From Candidatus Hermodarchaeota archaeon (GTDB lineage Archaea; Asgardarchaeota; Lokiarchaeia; Sigyniarchaeales; SOKP01), in assembly GCA_048885535.1 (NCBI GenBank), contig JBHLLO010000001.1, positions 3,721 through 67,720 on the forward strand: a DNA stretch of 64,000 nucleotides, written 5' to 3'. The position numbers and the translations under genes are program-made. Shown piece by piece: positions 24,251 through 36,498 of the stretch; positions within the stretch are counted from its first letter, which is position 1; every line of letters begins with the position of its first letter. The notes beneath the pieces were generated by a model. It was not told where the DNA came from and did not search any database. It was given only the letters and a program-made list of their open reading frames with translations.

Positions 24251-25777
24251 ATGGCTTTACCTTTACCGGGAACACCAATTATTCTTGACATAGGATCAGC
24301 GTATACAAAAGTAGGATTTGCTGGTGAACCTAGTCCTCGATTTGTGTTTCCCACTATAACTGGCACTGAAAAGTATAAAGCTGTAATGGTTGATGTGAGT
24401 GCAAGGAACATCTATGTGGGAAATGATGCTGCAAAGATGAGAGGCGTATTAAAGATTAAACGTCCTATAGAGAGAGGAGCAATAATGGATTGGAATGATT
24501 ATTACGAACTTTTAAATTATTGCTTTTATTCTCTGTTAAGAATACCTGATCTTTCTCAATATCCTGTTTTATATACAGAACCTCCTTTTTTACAAAAAGA
24601 AACTAAAGAATATATAGCTCAGGTGTTATTTGAAACACACCGTGTAAAACAGTTAATAATGGTTCCGACCCCTATCTTATCTATATTTAGTGTAGGATTA
24701 ACGAATGGTTTAGTTATTGAGAGTGGAGATGGTCTTACTTGGGTTTGTCCGATTATAAATGGTCAAATTATTGATCAAACAGTGCAAAAGTTAACTTTAG
24801 CAGGCACCGATGTTAATCAATATCTGAAAAATCTACTAATGCGAGAAGGGATACATATTGAATCTAGTGCTGTAGACGAGATTGTTAAGGATATGAAAGA
24901 ACGAAATTGTTATTTTGTAATTGATCCAAAAAACCCTCCAAAAAAGGATGAAAAATTTAGTACTGCCATGCCAGATGGTTCCACCTTAAGCGTTCCACAC
25001 TATATCTTTCATGAAGCTCCTGAAGTATTATTTCAACCTAGCCTAATAGGATATCCAATTAATAATATCCCTCAAGCTGTTATAGGAAGTTTAAACGGAA
25101 TAGACAAATACTATTGGAGTGAATTACTATCTCATGTTGTATTATCAGGTGGTAATTTATCTTATTCGGGTTTTGAAGAACGGTTAAAGTTAGAATTATC
25201 AAATTTACTCCCACAATTAGGCAAAATTCCTAAACCAAAACGAGATAAATCTAAAGAGAAAGAAAAGCCACAACTTAAGTCGGTTGAGGGATCAAAGAAA
25301 AAGCAAGATACTTGTCCACATTGTGGTTATAGAGTAGATTTATCAGATGGTAAAGAATTATGTCCCTCTTGTGGCGGCAGAATTGTTTTACCAGAACTTA
25401 CGATTAGTTTAGATAAATCCAGTAAAGGAGCCCCTATTATTGATGGAAGGCTCTTCTGTCCTAATTGTGAAAAAGAAATATCTGATTTTTCATCTATTTT
25501 TTGCCCATATTGTGGAAAGAGTGTTGAAACTCCCGAAATTAAAAACAGTGCAAAAAAGGGTATTGATTCGCCACCTCCTGCTAAAGAATTTGCTGGCTTT
25601 TACGATTCATCAGAAGAAGTTTTGAACTTCTTTGTCCCTGATAATCTAATATACGCAATATTTAATGGAGCTGCGATTTTAGGAACACTCCCCTCGTTTC
25701 TAAGACTATTTGTCACTTATGAGCAATTTCTTTCGAATAAGGACCTTTTATATAAAGATATAAGCGAAATTTTTTAA
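24251..25777 (+). CDS. Actin-family ATPase (actin/Arp-like) with internal double zinc-ribbon insertion
   Basis: 508 aa. Phosphate-1 ILDIGSAYTKVGFAGEPSPRFVFPTITG, phosphate-2 VIESGDGLTWVCPIINGQ, adenosine motif VVLSGGNLSYSGFEERL, C-terminal LIYAIFNGAAILGTL. The insert at nt ~25220-25620 contains CPHC...CPSC and CPNC...CPYC. Confidence 0.85.
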   Translation: MALPLPGTPIILDIGSAYTKVGFAGEPSPRFVFPTITGTEKYKAVMVDVSARNIYVGNDAAKMRGVLKIKRPIERGAIMDWNDYYELLNYCFYSLLRIPDLSQYPVLYTEPPFLQKETKEYIAQVLFETHRVKQLIMVPTPILSIFSVGLTNGLVIESGDGLTWVCPIINGQIIDQTVQKLTLAGTDVNQYLKNLLMREGIHIESSAVDEIVKDMKERNCYFVIDPKNPPKKDEKFSTAMPDGSTLSVPHYIFHEAPEVLFQPSLIGYPINNIPQAVIGSLNGIDKYYWSELLSHVVLSGGNLSYSGFEERLKLELSNLLPQLGKIPKPKRDKSKEKEKPQLKSVEGSKKKQDTCPHCGYRVDLSDGKELCPSCGGRIVLPELTISLDKSSKGAPIIDGRLFCPNCEKEISDFSSIFCPYCGKSVETPEIKNSAKKGIDSPPPAKEFAGFYDSSEEVLNFFVPDNLIYAIFNGAAILGTLPSFLRLFVTYEQFLSNKDLLYKDISEIF

Positions 25778-25911: not shown

Positions 25912-27012
25912 TTGAAAAATAAACTACGGAGCTTAATTACAATAACCGTAATATTTTCACTATTTCTAATTTTGCTTCCAACAGTTGCAGCTAAATCAAG
26001 GCAGAGCTATTTAGTAGATTTTTTATATCAAAATTATGATGAAAATAGAAGATTTGGTAATTCTTATGAGGATACATTCTATGCCTTGGAAATAATTGAT
26101 TACTATAATTTATATTCAATACCAGGCTTATTCGGAGATGAAGTTAAAATCGATAAGACTACTTTTATTGATTATTTAGAAACCAAGGTAGAAGAAATGT
26201 TCGATGATGAAGAAATTAACCTCTACGATTTATTCTATATATTAAGTTCGCTGGATATCTTAAATGGATTAGAATCATTAGACTCCAATTACAAATTCAA
26301 GATTTACAAGTATTTAAACCAGACTATAAGCCCGTTAGGAGGATTTTCAATTACAAATTCATCAACTGTAGTTAATTTAATATCAACCTATTTTGTGTAT
26401 AATATATATTCTTTAATTGAGGAACCTATAGTTAATCAAACACGCCATATAGACTGGATTCTTTCATGTAATAATACAGATGGTGGGTATGGAGGGAATA
26501 AAACTTTACCCTCAACTATTTTGACTACATTTTATGCAATCCATTTAATCAATGAATTTTCAACTACACTTGTCAATGAATCTGCTACGTTAAATTATTT
26601 AACTTCATTCTTTGGTAGTGACTCATATGATAAAGTTAATTATGGTGGATATTATCCAACCCTAATATCTAGCAATACCCTATTAAGTAGCACTTATTAT
26701 TGTGTCAAAGTAATAGACTCAATTGATAATAATGAATTGCATTATAGCATAACAACAAATTGGATATTGGCACGTCAAAATTTTCAAGATGGTGGATTTA
26801 TTGATGAACTTTTTGCCCTAGGGCAAGGAATTTCCTCAATTGGCGCATCGTATAACGCATTTAAAGCATTACAGGTTTTAAACGCACTCAGTTATCTCAA
26901 TCAAGATGTGTTTATGGTAGAATTCAACTACATAGTGTTAATAATTTTACTTTCAGTAATAGGAATTATTGCTATAATCATTGTATTTGTTTGGAAAAAA
27001 AGAAAAATATAA
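25912..27012 (+). CDS. Secreted, C-terminally membrane-anchored protein with prenyltransferase/terpene-cyclase-like alpha/alpha-toroid repeats (tentative)
   Basis: 366 aa with a TTG start. Signal-like N-terminus KNKLRSLITITVIFSLFLILLPTVAAKS. Spaced repeats PLGGFSIT, TDGGYGGN and QDGGFID. C-terminal TM helix followed by KKRKI. Confidence 0.45.
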   Translation: MKNKLRSLITITVIFSLFLILLPTVAAKSRQSYLVDFLYQNYDENRRFGNSYEDTFYALEIIDYYNLYSIPGLFGDEVKIDKTTFIDYLETKVEEMFDDEEINLYDLFYILSSLDILNGLESLDSNYKFKIYKYLNQTISPLGGFSITNSSTVVNLISTYFVYNIYSLIEEPIVNQTRHIDWILSCNNTDGGYGGNKTLPSTILTTFYAIHLINEFSTTLVNESATLNYLTSFFGSDSYDKVNYGGYYPTLISSNTLLSSTYYCVKVIDSIDNNELHYSITTNWILARQNFQDGGFIDELFALGQGISSIGASYNAFKALQVLNALSYLNQDVFMVEFNYIVLIILLSVIGIIAIIIVFVWKKRKI

Positions 27013-28069: not shown

Positions 28070-28522
28070 ATGGCAATTCTTGAGTGCGGAATAAATCTAG
28101 GAATAAGAAATTTAATCGAAATTCGTTATTATTCTTCCTCAGATAATTTACTCGATCCAAATTTAAGAGCTGGATTTCTTTCCGCCCTTGAATCTTTTAC
28201 TAGTGAGGTTTTTGGAGATGATATTAATGTTATCTCATTAGCCTCATTTAAACTTGTATGTTATTGTGATTTAGTTGCCTTACCTAATGATGAATCAAAT
28301 AAGCAAGCTCTTTTATCATATGCGATTATTGAAAAAGAGACAGATGCTGAACTAGTAAAAAAGCTTCTAGAGAAAATTAATTCACATTTCCTAAATAGAT
28401 ATTCTCTTAATGATATTTTTTCAAAAAATGAAAATTATTTTAAAGTTTTTGTTGATAGAATTAATGAAATTCTTGGAGATTTGAAATTAAAAACAGAAGA
28501 TCGATTTAGATCTATCTTTTAA
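28070..28522 (+). CDS. Longin-like domain protein (tentative)
   Basis: 150 aa. The residue pattern suggests beta-beta-alpha-beta-beta-beta-alpha-alpha order: ILECGINL, NLIEIRYY, DPNLRAGFLSALESFTSEVFG, INVISLASFKLVCYCD, ALLSYAIIEKE, DAELVKKLLEKINSHFLNRY. This is a by-eye inference only. Confidence 0.4.
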   Translation: MAILECGINLGIRNLIEIRYYSSSDNLLDPNLRAGFLSALESFTSEVFGDDINVISLASFKLVCYCDLVALPNDESNKQALLSYAIIEKETDAELVKKLLEKINSHFLNRYSLNDIFSKNENYFKVFVDRINEILGDLKLKTEDRFRSIF

Positions 28523-28590
28523 GTTAATAAGTCCCAAAGATAAGGTAATTGTGGAATTATTAGCACAAATTTTTCGGGTGTTATTGGTTT

Positions 28591-29793
28591 ATGAGCTCAA
28601 ATATCGGACCAGAAGCACAAGCAGCTTATCAGAAATATTTGGATGCTAATACTATAGAGGAGAAGATCAAAAGACTTGAGGAATTTATCTCTTTAGTTCC
28701 CAAACATAAAGCTACTGAAAAAATCGTAGCCCTAAATCGATCTCGTCTCGCCAAATTAAAAAGAGAACAAGAAGAACAAAAAATCAGACAAAAATCAACT
28801 TCTAAATTGATAAGTCCATTTTCAATTAAAAAAGAAGGTATTCAACTAATCTTAATAAGCGATTATTATGCTCCAGGTGTAGGTAAAACATCATTATTAA
28901 ACTTTTTAACGGGAGCAGCAACAGAAAAAGTAGGGAAATTTACTCCTTTACCTGAAATTGGTATTTATGAGTTTGACAAAATCCGATATCAAATTGTTGA
29001 TATGCCTTCAATAATGAAAGGTGCTTCTAATGGAATAGGTAATGGTAAGGAAATACTTTCTCAATTAAGATCATGTGATTTAATATGTTTTTGTATTGAT
29101 CTATCTCGTGATTATGATTCCCAAATACAATTATTATTAACTGAATTAAACAAATCAAATATTCGTATAAATATTTCCCCACCGCCAATAACAATTGAGA
29201 AGACTGGTGCAAATAAAATACAAATATTTTTTCTTACCCCTGAAGCAAAAGAAACTGAAGAATTTGTGGAATTAACAAATAGAATAAAGGAAATTATAAC
29301 TGAGAATGGTATTAGAAACGCTATTGTCAAAGTTTTTGGCGAAATAACTCTTAATCAAGTTGTTGATGCATTGAATCCTTCTGTAGTATACAAAAAAGCA
29401 ATAATTATTGGAACAAAAGGAGATCTACCAGGTACAAGGAAAAAGTTTGAAAAAATGAGGAGATTATATTTGACTCAATTCCCTATAATAATTGGATCCA
29501 GTGTAAATAAAAAGGAATTCCCTGATAATTTTGGAGAAATAATTTTAAAATTTCTGGACAAAATCAAAATTTATACAATGCATAAAGGAGTGATTGCTGA
29601 AAAGCCATTAGTGGTAGATTCTGAGCCAAATATGCCAAAAATAAAAGATATAGCATTAAGAATACATAAAAGCTTCTTTGACCAGTTTGATTACGCAATA
29701 GTTCTTAGGGAGTCAGAACGTCAAAAACGTAAGAAAGTTGGTTTAGATTATGAATTAAAGGACAATGATATTATAGAGTTGTTTACTAAGTAG
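28591..29793 (+). CDS. DRG-family (Obg-like) GTPase with C-terminal TGS domain; divergent G2/G3 motifs
   Basis: 400 aa. DRG N-terminal helix HKATEKIVALNRSRLAKLKRE; G1 APGVGKTSLLNFLTG; RINISPPPITIEKTG; G4 GTKGDL; TGS-like end VGLDYELKDNDIIELF. G2 reads FTPL where DRG has FTTL, and G3 reads DMPS where DRG has DLPG. Confidence 0.8.
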   Translation: MSSNIGPEAQAAYQKYLDANTIEEKIKRLEEFISLVPKHKATEKIVALNRSRLAKLKREQEEQKIRQKSTSKLISPFSIKKEGIQLILISDYYAPGVGKTSLLNFLTGAATEKVGKFTPLPEIGIYEFDKIRYQIVDMPSIMKGASNGIGNGKEILSQLRSCDLICFCIDLSRDYDSQIQLLLTELNKSNIRINISPPPITIEKTGANKIQIFFLTPEAKETEEFVELTNRIKEIITENGIRNAIVKVFGEITLNQVVDALNPSVVYKKAIIIGTKGDLPGTRKKFEKMRRLYLTQFPIIIGSSVNKKEFPDNFGEIILKFLDKIKIYTMHKGVIAEKPLVVDSEPNMPKIKDIALRIHKSFFDQFDYAIVLRESERQKRKKVGLDYELKDNDIIELFTK

Positions 29794-32476
29794 AGAGAGG
29801 ATTTTTTATTTTTTCTATAATATTCGGTATCTCATTTATTTCATCTTTATATATTGAATATACTTCCGGAATTCCATTCAAAATGTTTAGGATGCTCTCA
29901 AATGAATAGATTAAATTTTCTAAATAATCTATTATATCGCCTTTAAAAATCAAAATTTTATAGTCTTCTTCAAAAACTCTACTTATTTCTTCAATTGAGA
30001 GGTTTTCCTTTATCCTGAATGATAATAACATTCTTTCTATACTTTTCCTCCCACACTCACAATAAGGGTTATCTTCACAGCCACAGTTAAAAATATCATT
30101 TACCCATTTTGTTATATACTCAATAAATTCGTTTGAAAATTTCTTTCTTTTTCTCACATAATCAGCATTCATTAAAGATAAGACGCTTGCACTAAAAAAA
30201 TTATTACTGAAATATTTCATATTGATGTTTTTTGATAAATCTGATATTACTTTCTTTGATAAATATACATTCTTCAATGGTTTTAATTCTAGTACTATAT
30301 TTATAATATTTTCAGCTTTTAATTTTAAAATATCAATAATCTCCATGCTTTTCTCAACAGTTAAAAAAGACTTTGAGACTGCACGTCCTAAATTACTGAC
30401 TTTATAACTTGAATTATCATTTAATATAACCAATTTCATTTTTATTAGTTTTCTCAATAATAAGTCTATTTCATAATTAGCATTTATTAACTTTTTATTA
30501 AATTCATAGATATTTCGTATATCTATTCCCTCATTGAACATCGAAATAAATCCAAGTAATTCTGTCACAGATTTATCTTCATCTGGATCCAATTCAAAAT
30601 CTTTTATTTTTCCATTCAATAAATTAATGGCAATATTTTCTTCAGTAATTTTCATTTTAGGTACATAAATTTTTTCAGGTTCAACAAGTAGATATGCATA
30701 ACCGACATCATGTTTTCCTAATCTTCCTGCTCGACCTAACATTTGTTCAAATTCTGCCACTGTCAGCACTTTTATCCCCATTGCTAATGATTCGAAAATT
30801 ACTTGTTTTGCAGGAAAATCTACGCCAGCCGCTAAAGCGGCAGTAGCGACTACCGCTGAAATTTTTTGGTTTTGGAACTCCATCTCGATTAACTTTCTTT
30901 CTTCATTTGTTAACCCTGAGTGGTAAGCTCTTACGCTTATTCCCCTTTTATCGAGGAGGGTTGATAGAGCTTCACATTTTTTTCGTGAATTAGTAAAAAT
31001 GATTGATTGACCTCTGAATCCATAACTTGATTTTTCAAGAAAGGCTGATTGAATTAGCTTGATCATGAATTTTTGTTTTAGGGTTTCGTTTAAACATAGA
31101 ATTAAATGACGTTCAATTGGCACTGGTCTATTATTGTAATTAATTAAAGTCCCACCTAATTTTCTAGCTAAAACTTCTGGAGCTCCAATTGTGGCACTTA
31201 AATATAGGTATTGTACTTCTTTATAATTAACTTTTAATCTAGCTATTAATCCATCTAATAAATATCCTCTATCTATATCTGTTAAAGTTTGAATCTCATC
31301 AACGATTATTGTTCCTATATTGCCTAATGATTCCTTGCTACCATTTCTTAATATATAATCAATAGCTTCGTAGGTTGCAACGATAATGTCCGCATCGACT
31401 AGGTCATCTAAATTAGGGGGTTCATTTTTATCTAAAAGCGATTCTCCTATTTTCTTTACTATTTTTAGATCTAATTCTTTATACTTTTTTTCGAATTCTT
31501 CTGTTCTTACATTTGCTAGAGCTACAATTGGTACTAAATACAACATCTTAAGATTTCTAGTTAGTATTTTTGAAATTCCTGCTACTTCACCGATTAAAGT
31601 TTTACCTGATGATGTAGGCGCCATAATTATTTGATTTTCATCATGACTCAATAATCTTTGATCGATGGAAATTGCTTGAATGGGTAATAGCTTCTCAATT
31701 CCTTGATTTTTCAGTGCACTCTTCAGCTCTTTCGGTATTGAGATTTTATCAATGGAAATATTTAAGTAACGCTCAGAAAGAGGAGGGCTCTTCTCAATAT
31801 CATATAGTGTAACTTCTTTATTTTTCACTGGATTGAAATTTGCTTTAAAAGAATTCAAAACCTTATCAATATTTTTAAATTTTAGAATCATGTGGTTAAA
31901 GAAATTTTTCAGTTTTGGATTTATTCTTTCGGTTGAAATTAATCCAATAATTTTTGCTCGATTTAAGACAATTTCTAAAGCACAATCAGAACATAAAATT
32001 TGATTTTGAAAAGATCTGATTTGGTGATTTTTATTTAAAATATTAAATTCTTTTTTGTCTAAACAGGCTTTGCAAAAAGTTAAATTAATTATTTTGTCTT
32101 CAGGGATTTGGAAACTTTTCAACATTTTGTGAACTTTTAGAAAGTCATTAGGGTTAGTTTGGCTCGAAAAAGCCACAAACTGACTTTTTTCAGAAACAAG
32201 AAACCTTTTAAAAATTTTTGGATCAACGGGTTCTCTATTTCCGTCCCTTAATATCTTTAAGAAAGATAAAGGGCGAAATTTATTTTTAAAGTCTAAACCA
32301 AAAAGTAGGATTCCCTTGAAAAAAGGCTCTTTTACATAAGTTATTGATTGCGTTTTTTTATTGAAAGATTTCAGGTAAAAAAAGTTGATATTAAAACAAT
32401 TTTCTTTTTTGCTTTCTAAATTTTTATCTAATACAATAAAGAATTTTCTTTTAATAACACTCAATAGAATCTTCAC
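29786..32476 (-). CDS. Superfamily-2 helicase, Ski2/Hel308-like, with N-terminal zinc-ribbon extension and C-terminal Cys cluster
   Basis: 896 aa. Motif I MAPTSSGKT, motif II IIVDEIQT, motif III LSAT, motif VI QMLGRAGRLG. WH-like YKVSNLGRAVSKSFL. N-terminal CKAC...CSDC and C-terminal NCGCEDNPYCECG. Confidence 0.8.
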   Translation of the reverse strand: MKILLSVIKRKFFIVLDKNLESKKENCFNINFFYLKSFNKKTQSITYVKEPFFKGILLFGLDFKNKFRPLSFLKILRDGNREPVDPKIFKRFLVSEKSQFVAFSSQTNPNDFLKVHKMLKSFQIPEDKIINLTFCKACLDKKEFNILNKNHQIRSFQNQILCSDCALEIVLNRAKIIGLISTERINPKLKNFFNHMILKFKNIDKVLNSFKANFNPVKNKEVTLYDIEKSPPLSERYLNISIDKISIPKELKSALKNQGIEKLLPIQAISIDQRLLSHDENQIIMAPTSSGKTLIGEVAGISKILTRNLKMLYLVPIVALANVRTEEFEKKYKELDLKIVKKIGESLLDKNEPPNLDDLVDADIIVATYEAIDYILRNGSKESLGNIGTIIVDEIQTLTDIDRGYLLDGLIARLKVNYKEVQYLYLSATIGAPEVLARKLGGTLINYNNRPVPIERHLILCLNETLKQKFMIKLIQSAFLEKSSYGFRGQSIIFTNSRKKCEALSTLLDKRGISVRAYHSGLTNEERKLIEMEFQNQKISAVVATAALAAGVDFPAKQVIFESLAMGIKVLTVAEFEQMLGRAGRLGKHDVGYAYLLVEPEKIYVPKMKITEENIAINLLNGKIKDFELDPDEDKSVTELLGFISMFNEGIDIRNIYEFNKKLINANYEIDLLLRKLIKMKLVILNDNSSYKVSNLGRAVSKSFLTVEKSMEIIDILKLKAENIINIVLELKPLKNVYLSKKVISDLSKNINMKYFSNNFFSASVLSLMNADYVRKRKKFSNEFIEYITKWVNDIFNCGCEDNPYCECGRKSIERMLLSFRIKENLSIEEISRVFEEDYKILIFKGDIIDYLENLIYSFESILNILNGIPEVYSIYKDEINEIPNIIEKIKNPLST

Positions 32477-32902: not shown

Positions 32903-33862
32903 ATGCCAGATGTGAGAATTAAAACCCCTAATTTAGATGATATATTTGAAAAATGGAAACAAAGTTCTGTAAGGAAAGATCGAAAAAGAATGGAAAAACA
33001 ATTTGGTACAAAAGGAGCAGTTTTTTCTCTTGATGTCATATCTGCTGCTGAATATGTTAAAGATACAATGAAAGAAGCAGCAATTTATTTTGCTGTTAAA
33101 AAAACTCTTGGACCATCAACTAAAGACAAAGAAGAACATATAGTATTAGCCCCAAAATTAGTTCGAGAATATTTCTATTCATTTAAAGGATCAGAAAAGG
33201 TCAATAAAGATAATTGGAAGGGAGATGAATTGGTACCAACATATGAATCAATTCAACCAGTCTCTTGCAAAAAATGTGGAGGAAAAGGGTATCTTGATGA
33301 AAAATGTAAAACCTGCAATGGTAATGGTAAAATTGAAGAAAATATTGTTGTTTTAATAGGAGAAGACCAGAAAAAAGAGAAGAAACCTTTCTCATATCCT
33401 TGTGGCACTTGTTACGGCACTGGTAGTCGACGAGAATCATGTAAAGAGTGTGGAGGTCATAAAAGTTTATATAAATATGAGAATCTACCTGTTCCTTTTA
33501 AAACATTAATTACGGGGATTCCAATACTTCATAGTAGTGCTCAAACGAGATATGAAAAAGAAATGGGAGAAGATCTTCATAAAATGCTCGAAGATGTTGA
33601 AGGAATTAAATTTAATGATTTCAAAGAATTAGAATCTAAATCAGAAGCTTCTTTGGGTTATTGGAATAAAAATATAAAGAAAACTATTAGTTCCGCTGGA
33701 AGTGACTATAAAACTTACCAGAAGGATAAAGACACTCAAATAACTACGCAAATTTATCTCTTTCCCCTTATTCAAATGTTCTGTGAAACAAAAAAAGGGA
33801 AAAAATTCGAAATCTATAGTCTAGGTTCAGCAAACAAATTCATGATTTATTCGAATTTCTAA
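32903..33862 (+). CDS. Hypothetical protein with DnaJ-type cysteine-rich (CxxCxGxG x4) zinc-finger domain, no J domain
   Basis: 319 aa. CKKCGGKG, CKTCNGNG, CGTCYGTG and CKECGGHK occur in DnaJ CR-domain order and spacing. Confidence 0.6.
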   Translation: MPDVRIKTPNLDDIFEKWKQSSVRKDRKRMEKQFGTKGAVFSLDVISAAEYVKDTMKEAAIYFAVKKTLGPSTKDKEEHIVLAPKLVREYFYSFKGSEKVNKDNWKGDELVPTYESIQPVSCKKCGGKGYLDEKCKTCNGNGKIEENIVVLIGEDQKKEKKPFSYPCGTCYGTGSRRESCKECGGHKSLYKYENLPVPFKTLITGIPILHSSAQTRYEKEMGEDLHKMLEDVEGIKFNDFKELESKSEASLGYWNKNIKKTISSAGSDYKTYQKDKDTQITTQIYLFPLIQMFCETKKGKKFEIYSLGSANKFMIYSNF

Positions 33863-33903: not shown

Positions 33904-36498
33904 TTATTCAATTATATCATAACGATTTAATAATCTGGCAAAGATTTTTATTAACCAAAATAACTTTTTAGGTGCTCTAGAAACCCAATAATTAAAGTTT
34001 GCTGTAAAATCGTTTTCTTTTGAGCGTAACCCATTCAAAAAATTAGGATAATTTAATCCTCCTGTAATTTTTGGGACCTTTCCTAGACTTTTCACACCTC
34101 GCCAGCTGTCTTCGGACTTTCTTCGCCCTAACCATGATTTATCAGTTTTTACTTGAATTAAATTCCCAGATACGGTATTAATTTGACCGTAAATATTAAT
34201 TAATCCAATTCCTCCGATATAATCAGTGTTTTCAACACTAATTACATTCTCTCCCGTTCGTAAAAATTTCTTTATCTCAAGAAGTTGAATGTTATTTTCT
34301 AAGGTAACAAAATTAAGTGAAAATCTTGTAATCACATGACCAACAAATTGATCATTTATATATATTTTAGCATATGTTCCTGCAATAACTTGAATATTAG
34401 CATTGATTACACGATCTTCGATTTCTATAACTTTTTTATAATAAGTTTTATGGGTTTTATGTATCTGTTTAGAATCATAATATATGAATTCACTTGGAAT
34501 ATTGGGATTTACCCATTTACGATTATTTTCAATTTCAGAAATTTTCTCCTTGTAGAATTCTATTAACCAAAGATATCTTTTCTCTATACCTTGAAATCCA
34601 TCTTCTTTTGCGCAATTAAACCATAGAGCTTTGTATTCAGCTAATAAATTCGTTAGATCTTCTATTAAAACATTTATTTCTTCAATATATTGCCCTTTCA
34701 ATTTACTTTTAGCTCTTTCTGAGTAAAAATTAACAAGTTTTTTAGAATTTTTTCTCTTCTGACAATACAATTTCAATTGTTTTGCTATAAAACCAAGATT
34801 TCTAATATTTATTCCATTTTTTAAAACTTTTTTTTCTAAATTTCCACAGATTTCGATAATTGTATTTAAATCTTCGATTAGTTTATCAAATCTTGTAATC
34901 CTAATGTTTCTTTTGTACAATGAACTTTTCTTATTATAGGGATGGCTGAAGAAATGATTATAATAAGAAGAATCTCGAGTATGTAGTTTATTATTGTCCT
35001 GAATTGCTCTTAAAGAGTAAAAAACTTTTTTCAGCTTAGGATCAATTAATCCAAAAAAATGTAAAAATAAACCCTCCCAAAATCTAATCTTATCAACTAT
35101 TTTATCAGGATTCCATCCAACTTCCGCAGAAAATATGAAACCATATATTCGGTTTTCTCTTATTTCTTTATTTTTAAAATCACCCCAACTTGAGGTTACT
35201 TCCCCAATTATGTTCCGATAGTATCCATATTTAATTAAATTCATAATGTTCTCTTCTGATTTTGCAAATGAGGGATATAAGCGATTATAATCCATAATCG
35301 AAGGACTCACAATTATTGGATAGCCAAAAGACTTAATCTCATCTAAAAAGGGATGCTTTTCTTTTGTATTGTATTTCCAATACATAATAATCATATCTTT
35401 CGGTAACCTGAGTAAGACTTTTTTGTATTTATAAAGAATATCGTGATAGATTATTACTTTTTTATATCCATGTTTTTTAACAATATCATATATTCTTTGA
35501 TAATGCTTTAAGTAAGCATTTTCAATTCCAATTTCTTCGATATAAGCGTGTGAAGCATATTTACCAACATCGGAACTCTCGTCAGCAGCTATATGAAAAA
35601 AATCTGTTTTAAAAACTTGAGCTAACTCCCCAATCATCTTATCTAGTAATGTATAAATATCTTCATTGGCGAGATTTAAACTATTTGAACCAGGAAACTC
35701 ACCATAGCTCCAATATTCCTGACGATTTAGAATATTATCCCAATGACCAGTAGTTTGAAATATAGGGATTAATTCAACAAAATGTTTTTCTGCAAATTCG
35801 ACTAATTCTTTTATTTCCTCCTTTGAATAAGCACCTCTTCCTTCTGAAATCTTAGGATGGTCTTGAAACTTGAACATATCTTGCATATAGACCAAATAAT
35901 AATGATTAACCTTAAAATGACTCAATTCTTTTATGAATTTCTTTAAGTTTTCAATTGTTGCAGCTTGACCCCTTGAAATATCATCAGATACACCTCTTAC
36001 TTCTAGTAAAGGAAAATCAATTATTATTACCTCATTTAAAGAATCTCTATTTGGGCTTGAATTAATTAACTGGAGCATAGTTTGAACTCCATAGAAGATA
36101 CCCTGTGGAGAATCTGCTAATATAATTACCCTAGTATCTTCGGATAATATAATATAGCCTTGTTTAATTTTTAGATTGTTATTTAAAATACTTTCAATAT
36201 CAGATTGAGGAAAGGCTTCTACACATTCCTTAATAATTTCATTTTCATCTAGTAAACCTTCTGCTTTCGTTTGCTTCTTAATTTGAATATTATCAATCTT
36301 ATTGAGATTTCTTAGCTCATTGTGAAATTGTTCAATGATAAAATCAAACTCGTCTGGTAAATCAGTTGAGATAATAAGTTGACTATTAAGATTCAATAAT
36401 AAATCGCTTTTTAATTTAAAATATTGAACCTCAGGGAGAAGATATATATCAGTGGATATTTGATTTGTTTTAGTTAAATTTTCTAGATATAAAAACAT
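33904..36498 (-). CDS. Glycoside hydrolase family 20-like (hexosaminidase-like) protein with C-terminal beta-sandwich-like region
   Basis: 864 aa. GH20b-like GYIILSED...[13 protein letters not shown]. Catalytic-domain pattern [12 protein letters not shown]...[23 protein letters not shown] and FFHIAADE (compare HxGGDE). No obvious signal peptide. Confidence 0.55.

Follow-up and report, generated by a model that had tools for sequence, protein, structure and literature searches.

In a 64,000-nucleotide stretch of an Asgard archaeal contig (JBHLLO010000001.1 of assembly GCA_048885535.1; the whole stretch is called the window below), a 150-amino-acid (aa) protein with a predicted longin fold is encoded directly upstream of, and on the same strand as, a 400-aa GTPase of the DRG/Rbg family. 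The two genes seem to constitute a unit that is limited to Lokiarchaeia and a single divergent sister lineage. They could be co-transcribed, with the longin protein acting on the lokiarchaeial DRG as a partner or regulator specific to the lineage; we put this reading forward tentatively and at somewhat below even confidence. A functional partnership of this kind is plausible, and the support for it is gene order. The first-pass annotation of the window had described a longin-DRG pair as an unreported module, and our literature search likewise found, within the library searched, no paper joining longin with DRG, TGS or Obg, nor any paper combining Asgard with DRG.

The limits of both open reading frames (ORFs) and the gap between them given in that annotation agree with the ORF listing (Table 1). 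With 540 database homologues for the 150-aa protein and 619 for the 400-aa protein, both ORFs are far beyond chance, and both genes are under strong purifying selection, with 63-92% identity across species. Near-identical proteins occur in many metagenome-assembled genomes (MAGs) of 'Promethearchaeota' (Lokiarchaeia). No other ORF in the 64-kb window resembles either protein, and there is no second, canonical DRG within it. With a single DRG in most archaea (arCOG/COG1163), this GTPase may be the sole orthologue.

Conserved linkage of the longin and GTPase genes

The linkage was scanned in one genome per GTDB species, which gave 80 Loki-type loci, three of them ending at a contig edge and 77 informative. 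In all 77 informative loci the longin gene lies immediately upstream of the GTPase gene on the same strand, and the pair is also present in 14 of 14 Loki-type metagenome loci, so the arrangement first noticed in the window is conserved. While the spacer measures 68 bp in the window, it is mostly 20-25 bp in related species (modal 21-24 bp), so that there is hardly space for a second promoter. G-rich Shine-Dalgarno (SD)-like elements precede many of the orthologous GTPase starts by eye, and a strict motif scan detected them in 17 of 93. From these sequence features we infer that the longin and GTPase genes would be co-transcribed.

The pair is also kept in a divergent lineage, represented by loci L081 and L169, where a longin gene (43% identity) is followed by a DRG-like GTPase gene (38-40% identity). 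The flanks of this pair differ from those in Loki, with a metallo-beta-lactamase gene upstream and an Arf-like GTPase gene downstream; the latter (L169:3778-4344, +) encodes an Arf/Ras-like small GTPase of 188 aa and stands directly after the pair. Around the DRG homologues of Hel, Heimdall/Hod, Baldr and non-Asgard lineages, no longin-like ORF was found within ~4 kb.

A DRG/Rbg-family GTPase with remodelled nucleotide-binding motifs

Within the pan-archaeal DRG/Rbg family, whose eukaryotic members are ribosome-associated GTPases of the OBG type, the 400-aa protein represents the lokiarchaeial branch. Pfam assigns MMR_HSR1, MMR_HSR1_Xtn and TGS domains to it, and in a phmmer search against PDB sequences its best solved relative is yeast Rbg1 (4a9a, E 2.9e-33), which aligns from residue 9 to 374 with residues 20-398 of the window protein; Rbg2 and the human DRG1 TGS domain come next, and Obg proteins align with the G domain alone. 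The DRG/Rbg architecture is complete, comprising an N-terminal HTH, the G domain, an S5D2L insert between G3 and G4, and TGS. The Pfam domains and the full-length Rbg1 alignment bear out the initial call of a DRG-like protein, which had been made from a KATE...LAKLKRE helix, a PPPITIEK block and a TGS end. In Rbg1, the domains HTH, S5D2L and TGS are required for function and for Tma46-dependent polysome association (PMC3510508).

A metagenome scan seeded with conserved N-terminal DRG peptides yielded 14 further Loki-type genes and 66 more distant homologues, which carry an N-terminal 'MPANxxPE...PKHKGTEK' extension. By exact-sequence look-ups, the distant homologues belong to Heimdall/Hod, Baldr, Hel, Bathyarchaeia, Thermococcus, Theionarchaea and Ignisphaera, and their source annotations read 'ribosome-interacting GTPase 1', 'OBG GTPase family GTP-binding protein' or 'TGS domain-containing protein'. 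They share 30-38% identity with the window GTPase and 25-36% with Rbg1. Considering this identity and the extension 'M(P/S)xN..PEA...PKHK(A/G)TEK', common to the window protein and pan-archaeal DRG homologues, we place the window GTPase in the pan-archaeal family.

The G-motif columns were read from an L-INS-i alignment of 158 DRG homologues, including 93 Loki-type and 63 other archaeal sequences, and conservation was counted in 33 close homologues of the window GTPase. Instead of the G1 consensus GxxxxGK(S/T), the P-loop reads S-[D-Y-Y/H]-x-P-G-V-G-K-T, with the first Gly absent and a 3-residue insertion relative to Rbg1 and the 63 other archaeal homologues; it ends in GKT, invariant in the Loki clade, and not in GKS. 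This remodelling is a further deviation, absent from the first-pass annotation, which had described G2 and G3 as degenerate, with FTPL for the switch-I FTTL and DMPS for DxxG. The G3 half of that description and its placement hold, as the last position is S in 83, A in 7 and P in 2 of the 93 Loki-type sequences and never G, and the residue following DMP in the close homologues is S, A or T, never G. The G2 half does not hold. The pairwise HMMER alignment to Rbg1 sits one residue off at G2, which explains the FTPL reading, while in the 158-sequence alignment T118 shares its column with the invariant switch-I Thr, in Rbg1 the second T of FTT (T in 90/93 Loki-type and 61/63 other archaeal sequences). 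The G2 Thr is therefore retained, in a motif that reads KFT rather than FTT.

Residues P95, G96, G98, K99, T100, F117, T118, D137, M138, P139 and T275-K-G-D278 are invariant in the 33 close homologues. Across the 93 Loki-type sequences the Walker-B position is D in 73 and E in 19, and G4 conforms to (N/T)KxD as an invariant TKGD; its first position is N in 50 and T in 11 of the 63 other archaeal homologues, and the guanine-specifying Asp is kept. The OBG-type GAxxGxGxG motif is intact at residues 144-152, downstream of DMPS. Taken together, the P-loop Lys and Thr, the G2 Thr, the Walker-B Asp and the G4 Asp of the Loki clade are invariant or nearly so; the GTPase thus keeps the residues for guanine-nucleotide and Mg2+ binding, which argues for retained nucleotide binding. 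Because these residues are conserved, we read the protein as a remodelled enzyme, not a dead one. An altered behaviour of switch II is plausible, since substitution of the G3 glycine blocks the GTP-driven switch-II change in Ras and G-alpha, as in Ras G60A and G-alpha-s G226A.

The window protein had also been called an atypical DRG. The deviation itself is real, but it is not special to this protein: in the 63 other archaeal homologues the G3 Gly column is A in 41, S in 13, P in 5 and G in 4, so that 59 have lost the Gly; Glu replaces the Walker-B Asp in 53 and Arg replaces the P-loop Lys in 28. With such wide substitution, the word 'atypical' fits much of the archaeal DRG family, a large part of which may not be a conventional GTPase, and these losses call for caution in treating 'archaeal Drg' as canonical. 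The strongly degenerate look of many archaeal DRG homologues (L104, L111 and others in L103-L168) is plainest in Bathyarchaeia, with a P-loop GRS for GKS, a Walker-B Glu and 'EAPAL' at G3. Specific to Loki are the 3-residue P-loop insertion without the first Gly, GKT for GKS, and the invariant TKGD. A P-loop insertion is restricted to the two lineages with an adjoining longin gene, Loki and L081/L169, being 5 residues long in the L081 lineage; none was found in the DRG homologues of Hel, Heimdall/Hod, Baldr and non-Asgard lineages. The L081 GTPase reads VEQPAL at G3, and its GAxxGxGxG is deleted.

A predicted longin fold for the 150-aa protein

The small protein is the slowest-evolving and most conserved protein of its gene block, with 75-100% identity in the best 120 of 540 matches and 68 invariant columns in a 31-sequence alignment. 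Pfam and NCBIfam gave no match for the window protein, and sequence-profile searches of the PDB returned noise at E > 0.07 together with weak VAMP7/synaptobrevin-like matches. A profile search of 1.84 billion cluster representatives collected 119 clusters at 50% identity, mostly of ~145-160 aa. With 31 close homologues, AlphaFold2 reached a predicted local distance difference test (pLDDT) score of 53.7, and that model was not used. With a diverse 54-sequence alignment it reached a pLDDT of 86.5 and a predicted template modelling (pTM) score of 0.81. DSSP on the second model assigned E3-10, E13-19, H30-46, E53-56, E60-71, E74-88 and H93-110, then more C-terminal helices, which reproduces the beta-beta-alpha-beta-beta-beta-alpha-alpha order predicted from the sequence in the first-pass annotation.

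In Foldseek against the PDB, this model resembles a longin domain and not roadblock or profilin. The best match was VAMP7 (E 2.7e-4, template modelling (TM) score up to 0.64-0.70), and other top matches were the longin domains of Npr2/Nprl2/Nprl3 (SEAC/GATOR1), AP sigma, TRAPP Bet5/Trs23, Sec22b and Ykt6. Ranks 1-11 and 13-21 are longin-type and come from five eukaryotic systems, and rank 12 is an Asgard Rag-like GTPase; TM-scores are 0.5-0.7, which is moderate, at 11-13% identity. Roadblock/Ragulator chains first appear at rank 19 (a chain of the GATOR1-Gtr-Lam complex) and recur from rank 22 on (Ego3), for the most part at lower TM. A roadblock/LC7 identity was rejected: that fold runs alpha-beta-beta-alpha-beta-beta-beta and opens with an N-terminal helix, the feature that separates roadblock from longin (PMC10933270), whereas the model opens with a beta-hairpin at residue 3. 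Profilin was rejected too, as none occurs among the 50 Foldseek matches listed. Below the Pfam thresholds, 8 of 54 family members matched Longin (best E 4.7e-4) and 4 of 54 matched Fuz_longin_1 (best E 5.2e-5); Intu_longin_1 was also among these matches, and the family consensus aligned with Fuz_longin_1 over residues 34-124 at E 0.0021 (18.7 bits, the cut-off being 26.1). Nothing exceeded the Pfam gathering threshold for PF13774 (Longin) or PF19036 (Fuz_longin_1). The assignment of a longin fold is thus well supported by the model, unlike a place in a curated longin sequence family.

The motif GDLxLKxEDRF(R/K)S(I/L)F sits at the extreme C-terminus in most of the 119 cluster representatives listed, and conservation of R145 reaches 90% or more in the alignment of 54 family sequences. 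The motif also occurs in paralogues without an adjoining GTPase gene and is therefore a feature of the family, not of the pair. In several top Foldseek matches, a VAMP7 longin domain has a peptide bound to it or a SNARE motif folded back on it, so it is conceivable, as a speculation from the model, that the longin groove is filled by the conserved C-terminal helices.

Paralogues in other gene contexts

The small proteins form an Asgard-specific family with several paralogues, including members from Lokiarchaeum ossiferum and Hodarchaeales. One paralogue of Lokiarchaeum ossiferum (P0263, NEF87_002568) is convergent with a gelsolin gene (L085). In the Promethearchaeota MAG contig JBQSIB010000219.1 (L088:5001-10495), paralogue P0323 is followed by a 211-aa gene, Vps4 (MIT-AAA), ESCRT-II and an actin-Zn-ribbon gene of the type found at window 24251-25777, and another paralogue lies downstream of primase and GINS genes. 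Three paralogue groups adjoin homologous polytopic membrane proteins of ~230-260 aa (phmmer E 1e-17 to 1e-5) with a weak HisKA_7TM-like match, which may indicate a recurrent pairing of longin with membrane protein. The longin-like domain is also found as an N-terminal module, in fusions with TPR and PRTase-CE (PADLOC PRTase_III-A, E 1.6e-26) and with TIR (Pfam TIR_2, E 3.7e-11). PRTase-CE and TIR are effector domains typical of defence/conflict systems, and these fusions prompted a reading of the pair as a defence system, which we rejected at this locus as PADLOC returned nothing for the pair. Considering the varied gene contexts and the effector fusions, the family looks like a versatile adaptor domain, of which the GTPase-linked subfamily is one branch.

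Proposed partnership and alternative explanations

In the proposed mechanism, the longin protein would bind the DRG GTPase as a dedicated regulator or adaptor. There is precedent in longin/roadblock platforms, to which small GTPases bind and by which they are regulated (MglB, TRAPP, Mon1-Ccz1, GATOR1, FLCN), and in the DFRP proteins that stabilise and stimulate eukaryotic DRGs. The Loki GTPase may rely on its partner for the nucleotide cycle or for coupling this cycle to the ribosome, which is proposed from the G3 glycine substitution with its known effect on the switch in Ras and G-alpha. That the longin protein is specifically a dedicated partner of a ribosome-associated OBG/DRG GTPase in Lokiarchaeia, be it a DFRP-like stabiliser or a platform of the GTPase-activating or nucleotide-exchange type (GAP/GEF), is a narrower proposal and, in our view, rather unlikely.

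Several observations weigh against the partnership. The block of CBS / actin-Zn-ribbon / prenyltransferase-like / FolD / longin / GTPase / helicase / DnaJ-like genes is collinear over ~10 kb in all Loki-type loci, including the actin-Zn-ribbon gene 2.3 kb upstream, so the adjacency within Lokiarchaeia, which the synteny check confirmed as such, is not independent evidence for a link and is maybe inherited order. The L081/L169 lineage is a single lineage with the pair in another context and probably shares one origin with the Loki pair. In a mirror-tree analysis of six neighbouring genes at 60 loci, the partial r between longin and GTPase was 0.33, against 0.45-0.60 for some unrelated neighbour pairs, so that no specific co-evolution showed, and the longin distances correlated at least as well with the actin-Zn-ribbon protein (raw r 0.86, partial 0.40) as with the GTPase (raw r 0.80). 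Paralogues adjoin other genes (membrane proteins, gelsolin, Vps4/ESCRT-II/actin) or are fused to TIR or PRTase; with such varied contexts and a C-terminal motif common to all paralogues, nothing in the small protein is demonstrably GTPase-specific. The known partners of longin/roadblock proteins are Ras-superfamily and not OBG-family GTPases, and what links the longin and GTPase here is gene order. The collinear block, the paralogue contexts and the distance correlations, together with the DRG homologues of Hel, Heimdall/Hod, Baldr, Bathy and Thermococcus that have no longin neighbour, agree with the main alternative, that of two genes adjacent by inheritance, perhaps co-transcribed, and without a joint function. 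The GTPase would act alone on the ribosome, as presumably do those archaeal DRG homologues that lack a longin neighbour, and the longin protein would have membrane or cytoskeletal roles like those of its paralogues. We regard this as a real possibility, though not a probable one, considering that the co-oriented spacer is only ~21-24 bp in most species, that the pair persists between different flanks in L081/L169 at ~40% identity, and that the P-loop insertion is confined to lineages with a longin neighbour.

The motif changes themselves suggest another explanation, namely a pseudo-GTPase or nucleotide-locked scaffold that binds nucleotide but neither switches nor hydrolyses and that, in a constitutive complex with the longin protein, would be a platform with a new, non-translational role. 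The loss of the first P-loop Gly and of the G3 Gly, the 3-residue insertion, the still more altered L081 relative and the switch-blocking mutants of Ras and G-alpha-s all fit such a scaffold. We consider it improbable, however, as the (near-)invariance of K99, T100, T118, D137 (or E), TKGD and GAxxGxGxG is unexpected for a dead enzyme, most of the sampled DRG homologues from archaea carry these G3 substitutions too, and the domains HTH, S5D2L and TGS that Rbg1 needs for function and polysome association (PMC3510508) are all kept. It is also conceivable that the 150-aa protein is no true longin homologue but a roadblock/profilin-like or convergent alpha/beta sandwich protein, the longin label being a modelling artefact; the missing Pfam/NCBIfam match, longin signals that all stay below the gathering thresholds, the poor model from the shallow alignment and the moderate TM-scores at low identity would be accounted for in this way. 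The confidence of the second model, the run of longin-type folds ahead of roadblock in Foldseek, the lack of an N-terminal helix and the independent sub-threshold Pfam matches, all of them to longin families, make such an artefact very improbable. As such, a lineage-specific longin partner of the lokiarchaeial DRG is the reading we prefer, at the modest confidence stated above.

Features of the locus and neighbouring genes

The window, which comes from a low-GC lokiarchaeial MAG, has a G+C content of ~29% and carries Asgard hallmark genes such as an actin homologue fused to zinc ribbons (24251-25777, +). This 508-aa protein (Pfam Actin E 2.6e-65) has C-terminal double zinc ribbons, and its gene occupies the same position in nearly all Loki-type loci. 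A 366-aa protein encoded at 25912-27012 (+) combines a prenyltransferase-like alpha-alpha toroid domain with N- and C-termini that are hydrophobic, and is by far the fastest-evolving of the block, at 35-50% identity against 60-80% for its neighbours. Convergent with the GTPase gene is the gene for an 896-aa DEAD/Helicase_C protein with a C-terminal DUF5814 (29786-32476, -), the 3' end of which overlaps the GTPase stop region by 8 nt. Further neighbours in many Loki loci encode a 319-aa protein with a weak match to a DnaJ-type CXXCXGXG zinc finger (32903-33862, +) and an 864-aa GH20-family glycoside hydrolase-like protein (33904-36498, -). A tRNA scan found no tRNA genes in the whole 64-kb window, and no Rfam family reached its gathering threshold there. 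The NCBI labels of the JBHL* MAG series (Hodarchaeota, Hermodarchaeota, Thorarchaeota, Odinarchaeota, Heimdallarchaeota) look unreliable, because the proteins are 65-90% identical to those of Promethearchaeota/Lokiarchaeia and lie in the same collinear block; one contig is labelled 'Nanopelagicaceae bacterium'.

Table 1. Features of the longin-GTPase locus in the window, and proteins linked or fused to longin paralogues elsewhere.
Feature	Position or identifier	Strand or orientation	Basis
Longin-fold protein gene, 150 aa, standalone	28070..28522	+	ORF call, homologues, AlphaFold2 model, Foldseek
Predicted longin core, residues ~3-110, beta1-beta2-alpha1-beta3-beta4-beta5-alpha2	28076..28399	+	DSSP on model
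Conserved C-terminal motif GDLxLKxEDRF(R/K)S(I/L)F	28475..28519	+	C-termini of 119 cluster representatives
68-bp spacer with SD-like GGGTG at 28576-28580, 11-15 nt 5' of GTPase ATG	28523..28590	+	Sequence
Lokiarchaeial DRG/Rbg-family GTPase gene, 400 aa	28591..29793	+	Pfam domains, full-length match to Rbg1/Rbg2
Remodelled G1/P-loop, residues 90-100, S-D-Y-Y-A-P-G-V-G-K-T	28858..28890	+	Homologue alignments
T118, G2 (switch I) threonine	28942..28944	+	158-sequence alignment
G3 variant DMPS, residues 137-140, replacing DxxG	28999..29010	+	Rbg1 and family alignments
S5D2L-type insertion between G3 and G4, holding the PPPITIEK block	29137..29388	+	Rbg1 alignment; domain definition of PMC3510508
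G4 variant TKGD, residues 275-278	29413..29424	+	Family alignments
C-terminal TGS domain	29551..29787	+	Pfam TGS E 5.3e-9; alignments with human DRG1 TGS (2eki) and Rbg1 C-terminus
Membrane-protein neighbours of paralogues	L176:3637-4320, L170:5869-6630, L171:696-1385, L172:696-1475, L175:5466-6203	co-oriented or convergent	
Fusion proteins with TPR + PRTase-CE or TIR	P0242 (683 aa), P0244 (445 aa), P0356 (558 aa), P0261 (299 aa)		

Comparison with known systems

Among known systems, the eukaryotic DRG-DFRP complexes (Rbg1-Tma46, Rbg2-Gir2, DRG1-DFRP1) resemble the pair in combining a DRG that has HTH, G, S5D2L and TGS domains with a small partner, which is a candidate partner here. The eukaryotic DFRP stabilises the DRG, stimulates its hydrolysis and recruits it to polysomes (PMC8629797, PMC3510508), and in the complex the DFRP domain wraps the G and TGS domains, Tma46 doing so as an extended helical segment (PMC3510508). 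While DFRP partners bind through such an extended, largely unstructured helical segment, the 150-aa protein has a predicted globular longin fold, shares no sequence or fold similarity with DFRP and has no Pfam match to a DFRP domain. Eukaryotic DRG genes are not operonic, and G1 and G3 of their products are canonical. The usual description of archaeal DRGs is of single-copy proteins for which no DFRP is established (PMC8629797), so a longin partner would fill a known gap.

Compared with the pan-archaeal DRG/Rbg homologues (COG1163-type), the Loki GTPase has the same architecture and N-terminal extension, and substitution of the G3 Gly is common to both. The Loki clade differs in its P-loop insertion, GKT, KFT in place of (F/Y)TT, invariant TKGD and the adjacent longin gene, traits that were not seen in other lineages sampled. 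If the gene order is inherited and nothing more, the finding is a new Asgard longin subfamily together with a lineage-specific DRG variant.

The known roadblock/longin modules (MglB-MglA; TRAPP Bet5/Trs23-Ypt1; Mon1-Ccz1-Rab7; GATOR1 Nprl2/3-RagA; FLCN-FNIP-RagC; SR-alpha SRX-SR-beta) likewise combine a longin or roadblock fold with a P-loop GTPase. The predicted fold of the small protein resembles the longin domains of Nprl2/Npr2, TRAPP and VAMP7, and MglB and MglA are encoded by adjacent genes, as the co-oriented longin-GTPase pair is. This likeness to a platform comes from fold and gene adjacency; partner interaction, dimerisation and an Arg finger are candidate features here. In contrast to the Ras-superfamily GTPases of these modules (Rab, Rag, Arf, MglA), the GTPase here is a 400-aa multidomain protein of the OBG/DRG translation type. 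If the partnership is true, longin regulation of GTPases would extend beyond Ras-superfamily trafficking GTPases, and the lineage closest to eukaryotes would have a 'trafficking-type' regulatory fold linked to a translation-type GTPase.

In Asgard archaea, 41 longins have been predicted in Lokiarchaeum and a TRAPPC1-like longin has been modelled in MK-D1, with no assigned partners, and the small GTPase genes of MK-D1 do not, in general, share operons with genes for longin or roadblock proteins, OBG/DRG being outside that survey (PMC10933270). Asgard longin-domain proteins occur as standalone folds in Lokiarchaeia and some are fused to other domains, as in the present family, which differs from other Asgard longins in being missed by the Pfam longin models and in its distinctive C-terminal EDRFxS(I/L)F. 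Among the dozens of longin/roadblock proteins and many GTPases of Asgard genomes, the tightly spaced longin-DRG pair offers a concrete hypothesis of which goes with which and, if it is borne out, would be the first longin-GTPase pair to be defined in Asgard archaea.

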